DNA of 40,012 bases from a virus: IMG/VR virus record IMGVR_UViG_3300045391_003027. One strand, 5' to 3'. Each line of letters opens with the position of its first letter. Position 1 is the first letter of the stretch. The position numbers and the translations under genes were made by a program. The notes under the pieces were generated by a model. That model was not told the DNA's origin and did not search any database. It was given only the letters and a program-made list of their open reading frames with translations. Of the stretch, positions 26,001 to 38,557 are shown in pieces.

Positions 26001-26322
26001 TCACTTTTCTCCTCTCGAGTCTTGGTCACTTCCTGGAAAGCCTCTGAGATCGCGCGGTGTCTGAATGCCGCTGATGCACCACTGCAAACGCGAACGATTG
26101 GCCTTCGCCAGCCCCCGCCGGCCGCATTCGCGATGCAACTTGGTCAAGCCCTGCGCCCGACAGAACGCCCGTAGCCGCGTTTCGCTCGTGCCCAGCTGAT
26201 AGACAGCCTTGCGCAGCGCGCGTTTCGCTCGTGCCCAGCTGATAGACAGCCTTGCGCAGCGTCGGCGCCTCGCGCAGCACGTCGGCGACGTGTGTGGGTT
26301 CGAGCACGACGTAGGCCTTCAT
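26001..26322 (-). pseudogene. Small gene frameshifted by a 43-bp tandem duplication
   Basis: ATG at 26322-26320 overlaps the upstream stop as ATGA. The reading frame MKAYVVLEPTHVADVLREAPTLRKAVYQLGTSETR is then shifted +1 by the second repeat copy. Deleting one copy gives a 92-aa ORF ending at 26001 (...RLRAFCRAQGLTKLHRECGRRGLAKANRSRLQWCISGIQTPRDL...) with better GC3. Confidence 0.5.
26177..26262. repeat. Tandem duplication, 2 x 43 bp (gcgtttcgctcgtgcccagctgatagacagccttgcgcagcg + c/t)
   Basis: Copies at 26177-26219 and 26220-26262 match at 42 of 43 positions. The unit length is not a multiple of 3. Confidence 0.9.
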
Positions 26323-29739: not shown

Positions 29740-29779
29740 AAAAAACCGCCTGATCCGAAGTCAGGCGGTTTTTCTTTTG
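29740..29779. terminator. Bidirectional intrinsic terminator
   Basis: Perfect 10-bp stem, AACCGCCTGA (29744-53) with TCAGGCGGTT (29761-70), and a 7-nt loop. An A-run lies upstream and tttcttttg downstream, so a U-tract follows on both strands. The integrase TGA lies inside the stem. Confidence 0.7.
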
Positions 29780-30933
29780 GAACGCTTTTTCTGGGGGTCC
29801 CCCAGATCCACCGTCGCCAGCGCCGCCCGAAAGGACGGCTTCACGTAGCGGGACGTGGTGCTCAGCAGCTTGTGCCCCACCCGGTACTGGATACCCACGA
29901 TGCTCTTGCCCTGCTCGAGCTCGTGCGTCGTAAAGGCCGACCGTAGGTGTGACCCCGCAAACCGCTTGGCCGCCTCGCCCTTCAGCACCGCCGTGGCCGC
30001 CGCCTTGATGTGCGGCCGGTAGTCGTGCCAACCGAATATCAGCCCAGCGTCCGGACACACGGCGTCGAGGGCCGCCCTGGCCTTGCGCGTTAGGGGCACG
30101 TCGCGCGCCCAGCGCGCCTTGTCGATGTCCGCCGTGATGCGCAGCACCGGCGAGCCCTTGGCGTAGTGCTCGGGCACGCTGAGCTTGTCGAGCGTTGCGG
30201 GCCGGAGCCCAGTCTCGTAGCCCACCACGAAGCGCGCCCGGATCGGGAACAGCTTGGCCTTGTATGTTCGCTTGCGCGCCAGGTCGCGCCGTGGCGGCCC
30301 CTTCCGCCCGCCCCACTCCGGCAGCTTGGCGATGATGCGCAGCGTCTCCTGGGGGGAGATTGCGTCGGCCGCGGTACGGCGCCGGACGGGGTGCGCCTTG
30401 CCCGTCACGTTCTTGGGCACGCCGGCAATCGGAAATGCCGCCGGCAGCGCGCCAATTTCCTCGAGGGCACAAAACGACACCAGATTGCGGAGCGCGGTGA
30501 GCTCGTGTCGCACGGTCGACGCCAGCACCTTGCCAAGGCGCCGCCGCCGATACTCCGCGCAGCCCGCCTCGGTCAGCTTCTCGACCGACCCAAAGAACGG
30601 CACGAAATGCGAGCGCGCGTAGTCCCGCCAAACGTCCCGCGTTGGCTCCGCGTGCGTGGTTGTCAGCCATTCTTGCCATGCGCTTACGAGATCCTCGAGT
30701 GCAGGTGCACCACCGACGCGAGGTGCACGTTTGGCGATTCGGAGCTCTCCAGCTCGAGCAGCGGCGACGAGGCGCGCGGCCTCTGCGTTAGCTTTGCCCT
30801 CGTCTCTTGTGCCCGTGGACCGCTCAGTAGTGCGACCATCAGCGGTGAAGCGGGCGCGCCAGTTTTCGTTGGGCGAGTTGCGGGTGAGCGTCCAGGCTTG
30901 GTTTTTCCGTCGCTTGAGAGTGATTCTGCCCAT
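29761..30933 (-). CDS. int: Tyrosine integrase (site-specific recombinase), 390 aa
   Basis: ETGLRPATL supplies the first catalytic Arg, HLRSAFTTH the H-x-x-R motif and GHKLLSTTSRYV the His and Tyr. The N-terminal arm-type domain is MGRITLKRRKNQAW...RFTADGRTTERSTG. I took the ATG at 30933; the ORF-track start is the TTG at 31035. Confidence 0.8.
   Translation of the reverse strand: MGRITLKRRKNQAWTLTRNSPNENWRARFTADGRTTERSTGTRDEGKANAEAARLVAAARAGELRIAKRAPRVGGAPALEDLVSAWQEWLTTTHAEPTRDVWRDYARSHFVPFFGSVEKLTEAGCAEYRRRRLGKVLASTVRHELTALRNLVSFCALEEIGALPAAFPIAGVPKNVTGKAHPVRRRTAADAISPQETLRIIAKLPEWGGRKGPPRRDLARKRTYKAKLFPIRARFVVGYETGLRPATLDKLSVPEHYAKGSPVLRITADIDKARWARDVPLTRKARAALDAVCPDAGLIFGWHDYRPHIKAAATAVLKGEAAKRFAGSHLRSAFTTHELEQGKSIVGIQYRVGHKLLSTTSRYVKPSFRAALATVDLGDPQKKRSKRKTA
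29791..29808. repeat. 18-bp repeat ctgggggtcccccagatc, copy 2 (inside the integrase 3' end)
   Basis: Identical to 29585-29602. On the minus strand it encodes ...DLGDPQ... of the integrase tail. Confidence 0.85.
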
Positions 30934-31070
30934 GCGTCGAGATCCGATTCGAGGAACAGCACGCGCCGACCAATCTTCTTTGGCGTGAGCGCAGGTCGCA
31001 CGTGCGCGTCGAATGCCGCGACCGAGCACCGGCAACGTTCGGCCGCTTCGCGTTTCGTCAAGAGCCTCAC
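30684..31070 (-). CDS. Excisionase/AlpA-like HTH protein; the ORF runs 250 nt into the integrase gene in another frame
   Basis: GTG at 31070 overlaps the upstream stop as GTGA. (V)RLLTKREAAERCRCSVAAFDAHVRPALTPKKIGRRVLFLESDLDAWAESL is a typical MerR-type or Xis HTH_17 pattern. No stop occurs until 30684. Confidence 0.5.
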   Translation of the reverse strand: MRLLTKREAAERCRCSVAAFDAHVRPALTPKKIGRRVLFLESDLDAWAESLSSDGKTKPGRSPATRPTKTGAPASPLMVALLSGPRAQETRAKLTQRPRASSPLLELESSESPNVHLASVVHLHSRIS

Positions 31071-35122: not shown

Positions 35123-35392
35123 ATGTCTGCTGCGAAACAGATCGCTACCGAAACCGATGCGGCGACGCCCGCCGCGATCAGCCGCGAGGCGCGCGCCCAT
35201 CTGCGCGCCGTGTTCTACGACACCGTGCAAGCGCTCGCGGCGCTCGATTCTGGCGACCACTGCGGCGCCGACAACGCGCTCAAGGCCGCCATGCTGGCCG
35301 CCGCGGACGCGCGCGCTGCGCTGCAGCCGCTGCTCGCGCCGCTGTCACCCAAGGCCCAAGTCGACGCCTCACTCAAGGAGTGGCTCACATGA
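35123..35392 (+). CDS. Hypothetical 89-aa Ala-rich helical protein
   Basis: ATG at 35123 is preceded by AAGGAGGGA. Confidence 0.5.
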   Translation: MSAAKQIATETDAATPAAISREARAHLRAVFYDTVQALAALDSGDHCGADNALKAAMLAAADARAALQPLLAPLSPKAQVDASLKEWLT

Positions 35393-36846
35393 AAGACATT
35401 GTTCTCATCGATCACGGCAGCGTCTACTGGGCTGCCTGGCACTCCAGCGTGCACGAGGAGGTCAGCGCCGCGCATGACCGGTGCGTCGCCCACGTCCGCA
35501 AGATTGCCGGAAACACGAAGGCGGTCGCCATCTGCTGCGATTCGCCCAAAAGCAACCGCCGCGCGAAGTTCCCGGAATACAAGGCCAATCGCCCGGAGAA
35601 AGACCACGCGGCTATCGAGCAGCTGCAGCGCACGAAAGAGACCCTGCGCCGCGACGGCTTCCTGCTCTGGGAGGTCGAGGGCTACGAGGCCGACGACGTG
35701 ATCGCCAGCGCCGTCAAGCTCGCACTCGCCGACCCCGAAAACGGAATCACCGTGTGCACCGCCGACAAAGACCTGATGCAGCTCGTCGGTCCGCGCGTCA
35801 TCTGGGAGAGCACCCGCGTAGACCTGCAGTTGCAGGTGCTGGGCGTCCAAGAAAAGCTCGGCGTGCCGCCTGCCATGGTGCGCGACTGGCTCGCCCTCGT
35901 CGGCGACAAGTCCGACAACGTGCCGGGCGTGCCGGGGATCGGTCCCGTCAAGGCCGCGGCACTGCTGAACGAGTTCGGCAACATCGAGACGATTCTCGAG
36001 CGTGTTCAGAAAAACGTCACGCACAAGCTCTTTAGCCCGGCCATTGCCGCCGCTTTCTACGATGCGCAGAACCTGAAGAATCTGGCCATCGCGCGTGAGC
36101 TGGTGACCCTCGTCGACACGCTGCCGGTAAACTTTGACGAGATCTTCGAGGAGCGCGCATCTCAACCGCTGGTCGCGCCAACCGGGGAGTTTGACGATGA
36201 GCCGGCTCCCGCGTCGGCGCCGGTGCCCACCCCTGCTCCCCAACAGACGCCCGAGCCGCGCACCGAGCTTGTCGTCGCGCCACAGCAGCCGGCGCCTGTC
36301 ACGACTTTGGCGCCCGCGCAAAGCTCCGCTCCTTCTGCGCCGGCCCTCTCTGCATACGAGCAGCAGCTGCAGCCGCAGACGCTGAAAGCGGCCTCGATCT
36401 TGGCGGAGACGCTTTTCAATTCGCGGCTGTACCAAAAGCTCGGCAACAAAGAGGCGATCTTCGCGGTCATCCTGCGCGGGCGCGAGATGGGGCTGACCGC
36501 GCTCACCTCGCTCGACATGTTCCACGTCGTCGAGGGCAGGCCGACCATGACGGCGCACATGCTCATCTCCCGTGCGAAGCAACACCCCGACTGCAAGTAC
36601 TTCCGCTACATCGGCGGTGACGACACGTACGCGGAGTACGAGACATGGAACCGGCTCAATCCCGAGCCGACGCGGCTCAAGTACACCATCGAGCAAGCGA
36701 AGCGCGCAGGTGTCGTCAAGGCCGGTTCGAATTGGGAAAAGCGCCCCGCCGAGATGTTGCGCAAAACGTGCGGCGTGCAGCTCGCACGTATCGAATACCC
36801 CGAGGCCTTGGGTGGCCTCTACGCACAAGAGGAGCTCGCGGCCTGA
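35389..36846 (+). CDS. Fusion protein: N-terminal FEN / Pol I-type 5'-3' exonuclease, then a Pro/Ala/Gln linker, then a C-terminal RecT-like single-strand annealing domain (485 aa)
   Basis: ATG at 35389 overlaps the upstream stop as ATGA. The exonuclease motifs are LIDHGS, FPEYKANRPEK, GYEADDVIAS, TADKDLMQLV and GDKSDNVPGVPGIGPVKAA (H3TH). The C-terminus ...GLTALTSLDMFHVVEGRPTMTAHMLISRA...GSNWEKRPAEMLRKTCGVQLARIEYPEALGGLYAQEEL fits the RecT pattern W...P.EML.K....L.R...P. Confidence 0.65.
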   Translation: MKDIVLIDHGSVYWAAWHSSVHEEVSAAHDRCVAHVRKIAGNTKAVAICCDSPKSNRRAKFPEYKANRPEKDHAAIEQLQRTKETLRRDGFLLWEVEGYEADDVIASAVKLALADPENGITVCTADKDLMQLVGPRVIWESTRVDLQLQVLGVQEKLGVPPAMVRDWLALVGDKSDNVPGVPGIGPVKAAALLNEFGNIETILERVQKNVTHKLFSPAIAAAFYDAQNLKNLAIARELVTLVDTLPVNFDEIFEERASQPLVAPTGEFDDEPAPASAPVPTPAPQQTPEPRTELVVAPQQPAPVTTLAPAQSSAPSAPALSAYEQQLQPQTLKAASILAETLFNSRLYQKLGNKEAIFAVILRGREMGLTALTSLDMFHVVEGRPTMTAHMLISRAKQHPDCKYFRYIGGDDTYAEYETWNRLNPEPTRLKYTIEQAKRAGVVKAGSNWEKRPAEMLRKTCGVQLARIEYPEALGGLYAQEELAA

Positions 36847-38180
36847 TGGCAAAGAAGAAGCTTACGAAACTCACCGAGGCACAAGAGGCGCGCGTTGCGA
36901 CGTGGCGCGCGGAGTGGCTGACTCACGGCTGCTGTACCGAACGAGCGGACCGCCCGCGCGCGCAGGCCGCCATCACGGCCATGTACGAGGCAATCGGCGA
37001 GAAGGCGCCGGTGTACCTCTGGTTCGATTCGCCCATGTCGGCGTCGCTCGCCGCGGGGCTCCTGCTCTCGCTCAAGGCGAAGAAACCGCTGCGCGATCAG
37101 CTCGTCAGCCAGCTCGACAGCCAGCTCGACAGCCAGCTCGTCAGCCAGCTCGACAGCCAGCTCGACAGCCAGCTCGTCAGCCAGCTCGACAGCCAGCTCG
37201 ACAGCCAGCTCGGCAGCCAGCTCTACAGCCAGCTCGGCAGCCAGCTCGGCAGCCAGCTCGGCAGCCAGCTCTACAGCCAGCTCGACAGCCAGCTCGACAG
37301 CCAGCTCGGCAGCCAGCTCGGCAGCCAGCTCGGCAGCCAGCTCTACAGCCAGCTCGTCAGCCAGCTCGACAGCCAGCTCTACAGCCAGCTCTACAGCCAG
37401 CTCGGCAGCCAGCTCGTCAGCCAGCTCGACAGCCAGCTCTACAGCCAGCTCGGCAGCCAGCTCGGCAGCCAGCTCGACAGCCAGCTCTACAGCCAGCTGC
37501 GAGAAGATCTCAGAAGCCACGCGCGAAGCGCGGCGACCAACACGATGGCCACCAGTTGGCGCTACGGCTGGGTCGCGTTCTACAGCTTCCTGCAGGACGT
37601 TTTGGGCTTGGAGGCAGACGCCGAGGTGTTGCGGCGCCTCGGGCTTTGGAAGGAGCTCCTGCAGTCGTCCTTCTGGTTCATTCCGTACCAGGGAATGTGC
37701 TTCGTGAGCGATCGCCCGTCGGCCATCCATTGGGACGAGCGCGCGCGGCTGCATCACCCGTCCGAGGCCGCCGTGCAGTTCCGCGACGGCTACCGCTTGT
37801 TCATGTGGCACGGGACGCGAGTGCCCGAGCAATGGATTACGGCGCCCCAAAGCATCGACGTCACGGCCGCGTTGACTTGGGAAAATATCGAGGAGCGACG
37901 CGCGGCGGCCGAAATCATCGGTTGGCGCAAGGTGCGCGAGACTCTGATGGTCGAGGGCAAGGCGCGCATCATCGACGCCGACCCCGACCCCTACATCGGC
38001 ACGCTCTACGAAGTGGACTTGCCCGACTCGCCAGGCGAGAAGTTCTTGGACGTGCGCTGCGGCACAGGGCGCGACTTCACGCTGCCGGTGGACCCGAAGT
38101 CAAAGACGGCACTTGAGGCCAACGCCCGCACGTACCGGCTCAAGCCGAGCGAATACAAGAAACTCGAGGCGCGAACCTAG
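36846..38180 (+). CDS. Three-part protein (444 aa): an 84-aa N-terminal domain, a (Q-L-x-S)x33 tetrapeptide-repeat tract, and a roughly 225-aa C-terminal domain (possibly DUF6745-like)
   Basis: The ATG shares 1 nt with the upstream TGA. Only this frame gives sensible flanking domains. The C-terminal part ...VSDRPSAIHWDERARLHHPSEAAVQFRDGYRLFMWHGTRVP...WENIEERRAAAEIIGW...GTLYEV...ART matches a conserved family as I recall it. Confidence 0.6.
   Translation: MAKKKLTKLTEAQEARVATWRAEWLTHGCCTERADRPRAQAAITAMYEAIGEKAPVYLWFDSPMSASLAAGLLLSLKAKKPLRDQLVSQLDSQLDSQLVSQLDSQLDSQLVSQLDSQLDSQLGSQLYSQLGSQLGSQLGSQLYSQLDSQLDSQLGSQLGSQLGSQLYSQLVSQLDSQLYSQLYSQLGSQLVSQLDSQLYSQLGSQLGSQLDSQLYSQLREDLRSHARSAATNTMATSWRYGWVAFYSFLQDVLGLEADAEVLRRLGLWKELLQSSFWFIPYQGMCFVSDRPSAIHWDERARLHHPSEAAVQFRDGYRLFMWHGTRVPEQWITAPQSIDVTAALTWENIEERRAAAEIIGWRKVRETLMVEGKARIIDADPDPYIGTLYEVDLPDSPGEKFLDVRCGTGRDFTLPVDPKSKTALEANARTYRLKPSEYKKLEART
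37098..37499 (+). repeat. Tandem 12-bp repeat array, about 33 units of CAGCTC-NNC-AGC
   Basis: By my manual count there are 33 full units plus a terminal CAGCTG. Nine of the 12 nt are invariant in every unit. The variable codon is GAC, GGC, GTC or TAC (D x11, G x10, V x5, Y x7). Confidence 0.9.
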
Positions 38181-38203
38181 GCGCGCCGGAAGGAAAGCAA
38201 CAA

Positions 38204-38557
38204 ATGAAGACGATTCAAAACATGGGTGCGCAGGGCGACGTGCTGTTCCGTCGCATCGACAAGCTGCCGGCGGGCGTCGCCGAGCAGAAAGCCGCTGCAG
38301 AGGGCCACGTCGTGGCGCACTCGGAAACGGGGCATCACCACACCGTGAGCCCGCTGGAGGCCAAGTTGTTCGACAAGGCGACGCGCGACCCGATGATCTG
38401 CTACCTGCAGCTCGCGGGCGACTTCGCCGACGTGGTGCATCACCGCCCCCACGACACCCACGAAACGCTGCGGCTCGCCGGCGGAGCGGGCGCCATCTAC
38501 GAGGTCCGCCGTCAGGAAGAGTACACGCCGGAAGGCTGGCGCCGCGTCGAGGACTAG
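38204..38557 (+). CDS. Hypothetical His-rich small beta protein (117 aa)
   Basis: ATG preceded by GGAAGGAAAG. Motifs are QGDVLFRRIDKLP, AHSETGHHH and HHRPHDTHE. It recalls a recurrent small phage protein family of unknown function. Confidence 0.5.
   Translation: MKTIQNMGAQGDVLFRRIDKLPAGVAEQKAAAEGHVVAHSETGHHHTVSPLEAKLFDKATRDPMICYLQLAGDFADVVHHRPHDTHETLRLAGGAGAIYEVRRQEEYTPEGWRRVED

Follow-up and report, generated by a model that had tools for sequence, protein, structure and literature searches.

A variable in-frame array of Gln-Leu-x-Ser repeats between the two domains of a DUF6745 phage protein: a candidate specificity module

What does a long and perfectly periodic tetrapeptide tract do in the middle of a phage protein, and is it the peptide or the DNA that matters? 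The question is raised by a 444-amino-acid (aa) open reading frame (ORF) in the IMG/VR virus record IMGVR_UViG_3300045391_003027, whose 40,012 nucleotides (nt) were analysed as a whole and are called the window. This ORF joins two conserved domains, the second belonging to the family DUF6745, through 33 tandem 12-bp units that encode Gln-Leu-x-Ser (QLxS), where x is the variable residue. An earlier note made from the letters of the window had proposed a module of variable length or composition and, alternatively or additionally, a function of the repeated DNA itself. We show that the array in this family changes as whole 12-bp units, or blocks of them, are gained, lost and reshuffled, and that each lineage uses a small x alphabet, which is D, G, V and Y in the window and most often D, Y, R and G. 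By comparison with known phage repeats, we lean towards a role of the array in phage-host or phage-phage conflict.

The array and the protein that carries it

The gene is composed of the following parts.

36846..38180, plus strand: 444-aa ORF consisting of an N-terminal domain, the (QLxS)n array and a DUF6745 C-terminal domain
36846..37085, plus strand: conserved N-terminal domain of ~80 aa (KLTxxQE...W...G...PADR...Y...G...P...F.SP), outside any Pfam model and present family-wide
37086..37097, plus strand: degenerate leading unit CCGCTGCGCGAT (P-L-R-D), in the register of the array
37098..37493, plus strand: perfect array of 33 12-bp units CAGCTC-NNC-AGC (Q-L-x-S), seen by Tandem Repeats Finder (TRF), unit-by-unit reading and pattern scan
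37494..37517, plus strand: degenerate trailing units CAGCTGCGAGAA (QLRE) and then GATCTCAGAAGC (DLRS)
37518..38177, plus strand: C-terminal domain with invariant motifs including RLH, DG, W.HG..VP..W, N.EQRR, GW and CGTGR.F

TRF reports a single period-12 array at 37098-37498 with 33.4 copies, 0% indels and the consensus CAGCTCGACAGC. Read unit by unit, the array is composed of CAGCTC-GAC-AGC (D, n=11), CAGCTC-GGC-AGC (G, n=10), CAGCTC-TAC-AGC (Y, n=7) and CAGCTC-GTC-AGC (V, n=5), so that 10 of the 12 unit positions are fixed, variation occurs at unit positions 7 and 8 only, and the Ala codon GCC is absent from x in all 33 units. Both approaches thereby confirmed the 33 perfect units with one variable codon for D, G, V or Y that the earlier note had described, and the reading also confirmed its non-random start with V-D-D three times. 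In order, the x string is VDDVDDVDDGYGGGYDDGGGYVDYYGVDYGGDY, in which GGGY and VDY each recur twice besides the three initial VDD blocks. A 34th, degenerate unit, CAGCTGCGAGAA (QLRE), follows at 37494-37505, and if the edge units PLRD, QLRE and DLRS are included, Leu is found at every fourth residue over residues 82-222, corresponding to 36 units. A two-unit pattern with up to 2 mismatches matched 33 times within the array and once elsewhere in the window, where 0.08 matches are expected by chance. The VDDVDDVDD start is a 36-bp super-repeat in three copies and the part of the array that an assembly would most easily collapse or expand; the existence of the array is secure and its exact unit count alone is in doubt. 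The repeat also opens spurious reading frames that gene callers could mis-annotate, namely a 343-aa antisense frame with (AELxVEL)n at 36819-37850 on the minus strand and an (ARQP)n frame at 36572-38116 in another frame of the plus strand.

As the earlier note had stated, the tract is translated in frame between two conserved domains. Homologues of the 444-aa protein begin at the equivalent Met. A search with the whole protein retrieved hundreds of homologues, nearly all of them DUF6745 proteins covered over nearly their full length, with the architecture of an ~80-aa N-terminal domain, a period-4 tract and DUF6745. The two domains were also searched separately. The C-terminal domain, DUF6745-like according to the earlier note, matched Pfam DUF6745 (PF20530) over residues 265-439 (nt 37638-38162) with 71 bits against a cutoff of 27, and no Pfam model matched the N-terminal domain. 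The latter gave tblastn matches in 50 loci that were chosen by their C-terminal domain, and its hidden Markov model (HMM) matches the locus L087 of a sister phage with E=6.5e-31. The notion of two independent flanking units was not upheld: the domains co-occur family-wide and are mostly joined directly, and in no case were they found as separate genes with the repeat untranslated. Library matches to MSCRAMM SD-repeat adhesins, trigger factor, DUF826 and HsdS were rejected as artefacts of repeat composition.

The family is large. Using the C-terminal domain alone, phmmer detected 6,399 DUF6745 relatives at E<=1e-3 and 2,520 at E<=1e-10 among 1.84 billion cluster representatives (clusters at 50% identity). 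Its hosts are phages and prophages of Proteobacteria, Actinobacteria and Myxococcota, and a structural match adds a cyanobacterial phage. Only 2 of 50,697 deposited phage genomes contain a detectable homologue, and this scarcity probably explains why the family is unstudied. A scan of a genome collection with a single protein query found no relatives; the carriers reported here from that collection were found by the DNA pattern of the array.

Turnover of whole units and choice of the variable residue

Five pairs of homologues with 100% identical N- and C-terminal flanks differ by internal blocks of 5-18 units. In one example, DRGGDYRG[RDGRDGYDRRGRDGDYRG]YDRRGRDGDRDDGD, the bracketed block is absent in the partner of the pair. 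Pairs with 99% identical flanks even have unrelated x strings. The sister phage L087 (40,099-bp contig) has the same gene order of exonuclease/RecT gene, DUF6745 gene and partner gene (see below), and its array is composed of 50 units that are exactly the same four 12-mers as in the window in a wholly different order. The flanks of this array are ~80% identical to those of the window and match at only 61-63% of the third codon positions, whereas all third positions are identical across the 83 units of both arrays. These changes of whole units match the expectation for replication slippage or unequal recombination, and they keep the reading frame.

Two further comparisons each concern two contigs of one phage. 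L089 (Ga0310810_10297228) is a second contig of the phage of the window and was compared with window positions 36436-38461. Outside the array, the two agree without a mismatch in 1,520 aligned nt, 655 nt upstream and 865 nt downstream. The 13 units of L089 equal the last 13 of the 34 in the window (33 perfect units and the degenerate QLRE), the other 21 being removed by a 252-bp deletion between two V-D units. L089 additionally lacks 91 nt of the C-terminal domain (window 37612-37702), which causes a frameshift, and it may be a decaying copy, a real variant or an assembly chimera or error. L087 and L088 are contigs of one phage obtained from two samples. Their sequences agree throughout 2,451 nt upstream and 719 nt downstream of the array, and all differences fall inside it. 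Here, L088 2468-3981 compared with L087 2452-3981 shows irregular indels that remove 16 nt net and leave two ORFs of 406 and 115 aa in place of one gene; this difference may reflect real frameshift (phase-like) variation, decay, or a sequencing or assembly error. As a control, three independent records of a Rhizorhabdus histidinilytica prophage contain an identical 30-unit array, and therefore the arrays are real and stable on laboratory timescales. Taken together, the pairs with identical flanks and the 50 units of L087 and 13 units of L089 against 33 in the window bear out the proposed module of variable length and composition.

We pooled 36 DUF6745-linked arrays with 904 units. Many of them came from a pattern in which CAGCTC and AGC are held constant over four units in a row, and the extension rule admitted synonymous variants. 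Recurrent variant states numbered 104 at positions 1 and 2 of the x codon and 6 at its position 3, and the Q, L and S codons showed 0 synonymous and 8 non-synonymous states. Asp (25%), Tyr (25%), Arg (20%) and Gly (19%) make up 88% of the x residues, followed by the rarer Val, Ser, Trp, His and Glu. No x residue is Ala, Pro, Thr, Phe or Ile, though the Ala codon GCC is a single step away from GAC, GGC and GTC. The alphabets are codon grids with a fixed third base, mostly {G,T,C}{A,G}C, and a second class is N-G/A-G (W, R, G, E, Q). In the window alone, the absence of synonymous change is not significant on its own (our estimate is ~0.08) because three point mutations and duplication suffice to explain its four unit types. 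The pooled pattern and the bias among equally reachable residues argue for selection acting on the displayed residue.

Distribution, genomic setting and predicted structure

How common are such arrays? Of 121 homologues from the whole-protein search, 112 carry 5 units or more (median 22, maximum 74), but a search that starts from shared words is biased towards proteins with repeats. Two samples were therefore drawn regardless of repeats. Among the best 150 of the 6,399 phmmer relatives, 22 carry at least 5 units (23 of 132 after a filter for complete domains), and so do 6 of 72 loci in viral contigs that were found via a C-domain motif. Carriers thus represent ~8-17% of the relatives, a lower bound because assemblies break at arrays. 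Across homologues, the number of units ranges from 2 to 74. The site of the array is fixed and always the junction between the N- and C-terminal domains, so that it is a recurrent insertion at one site and not a universal feature of the family. The earlier note had named two circumstances that would count against it, a repeat-free homologue as the norm and an array absent from all relatives; the former holds and the latter does not. Repeat-free DUF6745 proteins share with the protein of the window the same N- and C-terminal domains, the same partner gene and the same phage or prophage setting, but have a short linker with a median of ~106 aa before the C-domain model, compared to ~140 aa for the array of the window alone. 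In a neighbour-joining tree of the C-terminal domain, which is poorly resolved as the sequences are ~50% diverged, carriers are scattered, with 19 Fitch changes for 23 carriers against a shuffled mean of 21.3 and minimum of 17. This scatter implies frequent gain and loss of the array, as judged from the C-domain sequences.

The array takes several forms at the same junction. Manatee Spring phage MW202476 has S-S-L-x encoded by AGC-CTC-NNG-AGC, gp38 of the M. abscessus prophage prophiGD102-1 has Q-L-x-D/G encoded by CAG-CTC-NGG-GNC, and a contig of 44% G+C has N-L-x-D/A encoded by AAC-CTG-NGG-GNC. Other variants are QQLx, ASLx/DSLx, GQLx/DQLx, DNLx/ANLx and Asn-rich forms, some of these known as protein examples only. 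Among 31 arrays of the type CAGCTC-NNN-AGC in viral contigs, 25 sit in DUF6745 genes: 19 are followed by the DUF6745 C-terminal domain, and six of eight that are cut by a contig end have the N-terminal domain upstream, the other two being unassignable. The remaining four are unrelated poly-Q or poly-P tracts. Carriers of the CAGCTC type include Rhizorhabdus, Sphingobium, Sphingomicrobium, Devosia and Reyranella as well as gammaproteobacterial and other metagenome-assembled genomes. Two contigs, L127/L137 (JAFDXN010000055.1, 45,248 bp) and L103/L118 (IMGVR_UViG_3300033072_000969, 62,341 bp), have both of their ends within a QLxS array, which is the expected outcome if the assembly of a circular phage genome breaks at the repeat. 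Since the arrays break short-read assemblies and spawn mirror-image spurious ORFs, the family is probably under-counted, truncated and mis-annotated.

The DUF6745 gene is flanked by the following two genes.

35380..36846, plus strand: upstream 488-aa ORF with 5'-3' exonuclease (FEN-like) N- and C-domains, a Pro/Ala-rich linker and a RecT-like C-terminus
38204..38557, plus strand: partner gene encoding a 117-aa all-beta protein (phrog_27831; AQGDV...HSETGHHH...H.R..DTH.T...RQ...PEGW)

The partner ORF begins 24 nt past the DUF6745 stop codon. We looked for the partner by tblastn in 85 loci with a C-domain match, of which 80 had been retrieved via the C-domain motif; it was found in 75, within 4 kb and mostly adjacent. 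It lies at most 300 nt downstream in 35 loci, immediately upstream in ~25 and within 4 kb in the rest, so the gene order varies; examples are L001 7368-7700 (MW202476, unannotated), L005 9033-9422, L006 11052-11411 and L087 4001-4351. More than 1,800 members of the partner family are found in databases, and its invariant residues include D12, H39, E41, H44, H46, H79, H86, R103, Q104 and E106. Its AlphaFold2 (AF2) model is all-beta with a predicted local distance difference test (pLDDT) score of 90; the model had no match in the PDB (best E = 0.13), and the protein belongs to no Pfam, NCBIfam or PADLOC family. The DUF6745 gene probably works as a two-gene module with the partner, whose conserved histidines may constitute a metal site. 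On the other side, the start codon of the 444-aa ORF overlaps the stop codon of the exonuclease/RecT ORF (ATGA), which suggests translational coupling of both genes. The upstream ORF would be an exonuclease-annealase fusion, and it is kept in the sister phage (L087 989-2452).

The window looks like a temperate phage genome of ~40 kb and 66% G+C, and genes for a portal, large terminase, head protein, tail spike and tyrosine integrase were identified. Within it, the DUF6745 gene sits in a plus-strand block beside the recombination gene, and the label of an early protein given to its product rests solely on this position. In relatives, it is found in accessory regions of phages and prophages beside small ORFs and HNH, Dam, VRR-NUC and integrase genes. 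The tyrosine integrase gene of the window (29761-31032, minus strand; Pfam Phage_integrase, 30.5 bits) contains a 165-bp stretch, 29813-29977, with 86% DNA identity to the integrase gene of MW202476, an otherwise dissimilar phage that also has a repeat-bearing DUF6745 protein. Between the packaging genes and the integrase, a perfect 43-bp direct repeat is located at 26176-26261 (2.0 copies, 100% identity, TRF score 172), which could be regulatory or attachment-related.

The full-length AF2 model, based on an alignment of 86 sequences, has a mean pLDDT of 79.8 and a predicted template modelling score of 0.65. As means of 10-residue blocks, pLDDT exceeds 90 in the N-terminal domain (residues 11-70) and the C-terminal domain (residues 241-440). 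The array, with pLDDT 40-68, is modelled as a helix (80-134), a loop (135-158, pLDDT near 40) and helices (159-233). This secondary-structure layout suggests, with low confidence, a helical hairpin that would project from docked N- and C-terminal domains, an arrangement that would fit the repeat-free relatives, with the short linker between their two domains. In a viral structure library, the only matches were other DUF6745 proteins, among them a protein of Microcystis phage Ma-LMM01. PDB sequences searched with a profile returned low-complexity matches only.

Proposed function, rival explanations and known systems

We consider it somewhat probable, by analogy to the phage proteins described below, that the array serves phage-host or phage-phage conflict as a contingency or specificity module. 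According to this proposal, the observed turnover of 12-bp units would come from slippage or unequal recombination with the frame kept. The resulting rapid and heritable changes in unit number and x order would make a repetitive projection longer, shorter or different on its surface, or would shift the spacing of the two domains, and the altered array would retune the interaction of the protein with a variable partner in the conflict. Several observations weigh against this proposal. Most members of the family join both domains directly and have no repeat, and therefore the core function does not require the array. The variation is documented to a large part in metagenome assemblies that break at arrays, with 13 of 31 viral-contig arrays at contig ends; some differences in unit count could be collapse artefacts, and the frameshifts of L088 and L089 are as expected from errors or decay. 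Helix, hairpin and disorder are all possible for the tract because a strict period of 4 leaves Leu off one face of an alpha-helix and Gly is common at x. Foldseek found no match of the full-length model in the PDB (best E = 0.8), PADLOC and NCBIfam gave no real match for the DUF6745 protein, and our literature search found no paper mentioning DUF6745 or PF20530. Finally, the analogy is a resemblance alone, as flanking domains and neighbouring genes are unrelated.

The main rival, which we regard as possible but doubtful, is a near-neutral expansion of low complexity, in which a slippage-prone 12-bp seed grows in a permissive linker and selection only keeps the frame and purges disruptive residues. 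Direct joining of both domains in most relatives, the almost random scatter of carriers on the tree, the range of 2 to 74 units and the frameshifted or deleted copies would all be compatible with such a process, as would the three point mutations and duplication that account for the unit types of the window. It agrees less well with the strongly non-random x alphabet over 36 arrays, in which residues one mutation away are absent, with the invariance of Q, L and S over hundreds of units while the flanks diverge by ~39% at third codon positions, and with the persistence of long in-frame arrays in many lineages. Moreover, analogous arrays arose independently in Tweety gp54 and BPP-1 Bbp36, and for the Tweety array a phenotype is demonstrated (PMC9262239). 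A role of the nucleic acid, in which 33 phased CAGCTC sites would serve as a binding, partition, packaging or recombination array or as structured RNA and coding would be secondary, appears improbable to us; it was one of the suggestions of the earlier note. CAGCTC...AGC is identical in every unit of the window and L087 despite the ~39% third-position difference of the flanks, CAGCTC also occurs in distant high-GC relatives that were found without the DNA pattern (L003, L011, L018, L023, L033), and the array RNA folds better than shuffled controls (z = -4.0). However, other relatives keep the period of the peptide and its position in the protein with other codons and residues (AGCCTC..., AACCTG..., and Asn-rich forms in AT-rich genomes), the arrays are always in frame at one domain junction of one protein family, and the exclusively non-synonymous variation points to selection at the level of the protein. 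The 12-bp period is also out of phase with the helical repeat of DNA, CAG, CTC and AGC are preferred codons of the genome, and the RNA ensemble is diffuse (minimum free energy structure at a frequency of 0.0013, centroid only -57 kcal/mol), a result that any array of AGCU palindromes would give.

It is still less probable that the array is an assembly artefact, with a short repeat of the metagenomic contig having been expanded, collapsed or joined chimerically. One may point to the arrays at contig ends and the circular contigs that start and end in an array, to the irregular indels in L088 and L089, and to the exact 444-aa product, which is absent as a called gene in a look-up of the gene index whereas the product of its neighbour is on record. 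Yet the same architecture is found in hundreds of independent assemblies, isolate genomes and GenBank phage records, three independent records of the R. histidinilytica prophage agree on its array, and in the window the array is perfectly in frame with conserved domains continuing on both sides. Diversification of the x codons by targeted mutagenesis of the type performed by diversity-generating retroelements (DGR) can be largely dismissed. In its favour, no more than two nucleotide positions vary in each unit, no single step within the observed grid turns a used codon into a stop, much like the codon design of DGR variable regions, and the changes from GAC to GGC or GTC occur at adenine. But TAC and GAC differ at G and not at A, no second, template-like copy of the repeat is present in the window, and no reverse transcriptase was detected among the window ORFs tested, which did not include every small ORF. 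Each lineage has 3-5 discrete and heavily reused unit types, which fits rare point mutations followed by shuffling of units.

Beyond the contingency or specificity module, a more specific idea, to which we give a small chance only, is that the arrays are a minimalist recognition polymer in which each unit would show one residue of a small alphabet dominated by D, Y, R and G. New specificities or valencies would then arise by shuffling, duplicating and deleting units instead of point mutation, a recombination-based diversity generator acting together with the 117-aa partner, and temperate phages would have arrived at this principle on at least three separate occasions (DUF6745, gp54, Bbp36). 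The D/Y/R/G palette is close both to the reduced codes that synthetic antibody libraries use and to the Tyr/Arg 'stickers' of proteins that undergo phase separation. The variable or exposed positions of the repeats are D/Y/R/G or W/R/G/E in DUF6745 proteins, G/W/Q and S/Y in gp54 (L002 5645-6769) and GYR in Bbp36 (L121 12777-13706). Speculatively, this shared use of aromatic residues, Arg and Gly in three unrelated repeat proteins may create multivalent 'sticker' surfaces.

Two other systems bear on the geometry and the copy number of the array. In the HsdS subunits of the type IC restriction-modification systems EcoR124I/II, a 12-bp TAEL repeat forms an antiparallel coiled coil, and its copy number of 2 or 3 sets the distance and rotation between domains and thereby the specificity (PMC3874165). 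The likeness consists in a tetrapeptide with Leu at its end and in the AF2 model of the window array as two long, antiparallel-length helices; the difference lies in 2-3 units versus 33 and in the lack of a variable position in HsdS. The protein of the window is no HsdS member, since it has no match to a target-recognition domain (Methylase_S) or other HsdS Pfam model. The sole PADLOC match (24 bits, central HsdS region) is confined to the repeat and is probably an artefact of composition or coiled coil. TAEL is a mechanistic precedent for a repeat number that sets inter-domain geometry. Variable region VR2 of Bbp36 in the Bordetella phage BPP-1/BMP-1 has 9-20 repeat copies between isolates (PMC2884959). 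Like the array of the window, VR2 repeats in frame and varies in copy number, and it lies in a non-structural protein that its temperate phage can do without; the repeat is rich in Gly, Tyr and Arg (GTATAGYR). Homology was rejected, as Bbp36 has 24-bp units encoding an octapeptide, a DUF7666 N-terminal domain and no DUF6745.

The closest resemblance is to gp54 of the mycobacteriophage Tweety. This protein has 48 tetrapeptide repeats from 12-bp units, in which two leading Ala and the third codon positions are invariant, and the unit number of such proteins is 48, 26 and 15 in Tweety, Che8 (gp57) and PMC (gp51), respectively (PMC2884959). In our recomputation, the Tweety DNA showed 0 synonymous and 26 non-synonymous differences. 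Two reviews describe defence-escape mutants of Tweety in which gain or loss of repeats retunes the counter-defence specificity of gp54 towards the (p)ppGpp-synthetase system Phrann gp29/gp30 or the MichelleMyBell prophage defence, by a mechanism called obscure there (PMC8549241, PMC9262239). The statement of the earlier note that no function is described for such a repeat thus needs to be qualified: it concerned the QLxS tetrapeptide itself, and for the analogous gp54 array a role is shown by experiment (PMC2884959, PMC8549241, PMC9262239). Both proteins have an in-frame 12-bp tetrapeptide array between unique N- and C-terminal regions; gp54 is a non-essential protein encoded in the non-structural arm of a temperate phage. 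In both, variation is restricted to the first and second codon positions, and third positions are invariant. The repeat of gp54, (A-A-x-S/Y)n, likewise has a small variable alphabet (G, W, Q, S, Y), and unit number differs among close relatives, as it does among otherwise near-identical DUF6745 proteins with the caveat of metagenome assembly. On the other hand, the core of gp54 is Ala-Ala instead of Gln-Leu...Ser, its C-terminal region has only ~40 aa, and the 12-kb Tweety region examined contains no homologue of the 117-aa partner by HMM. Homology of gp54 was rejected, as it has no DUF6745 match, a BLASTP E of 67 and no hit with the N-domain, C-domain and partner HMMs, the positive control being strong. 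Counter-defence by gp54 was seen in experiments.

From this non-homologous protein, we infer by analogy that a Tweety-like behaviour, with repeat number switching counter-defence specificity, could apply to the DUF6745 arrays. Tweety gp54 is the only experimentally studied phage protein with a counter-defence specificity tuned by tetrapeptide repeat number, and its genetic design recurs in an unrelated and far larger family. A hypervariable in-frame array in a dispensable protein of temperate phages is of a known kind; new here are its occurrence in a large unstudied family and the previously unnoticed linkage of two genes. The partner gene and the D/Y/R/G bias offer concrete handles for experiments. 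If the analogy to gp54 is true, unit-shuffling arrays would be a general and convergent route by which temperate phages evolve rapidly in their conflicts.

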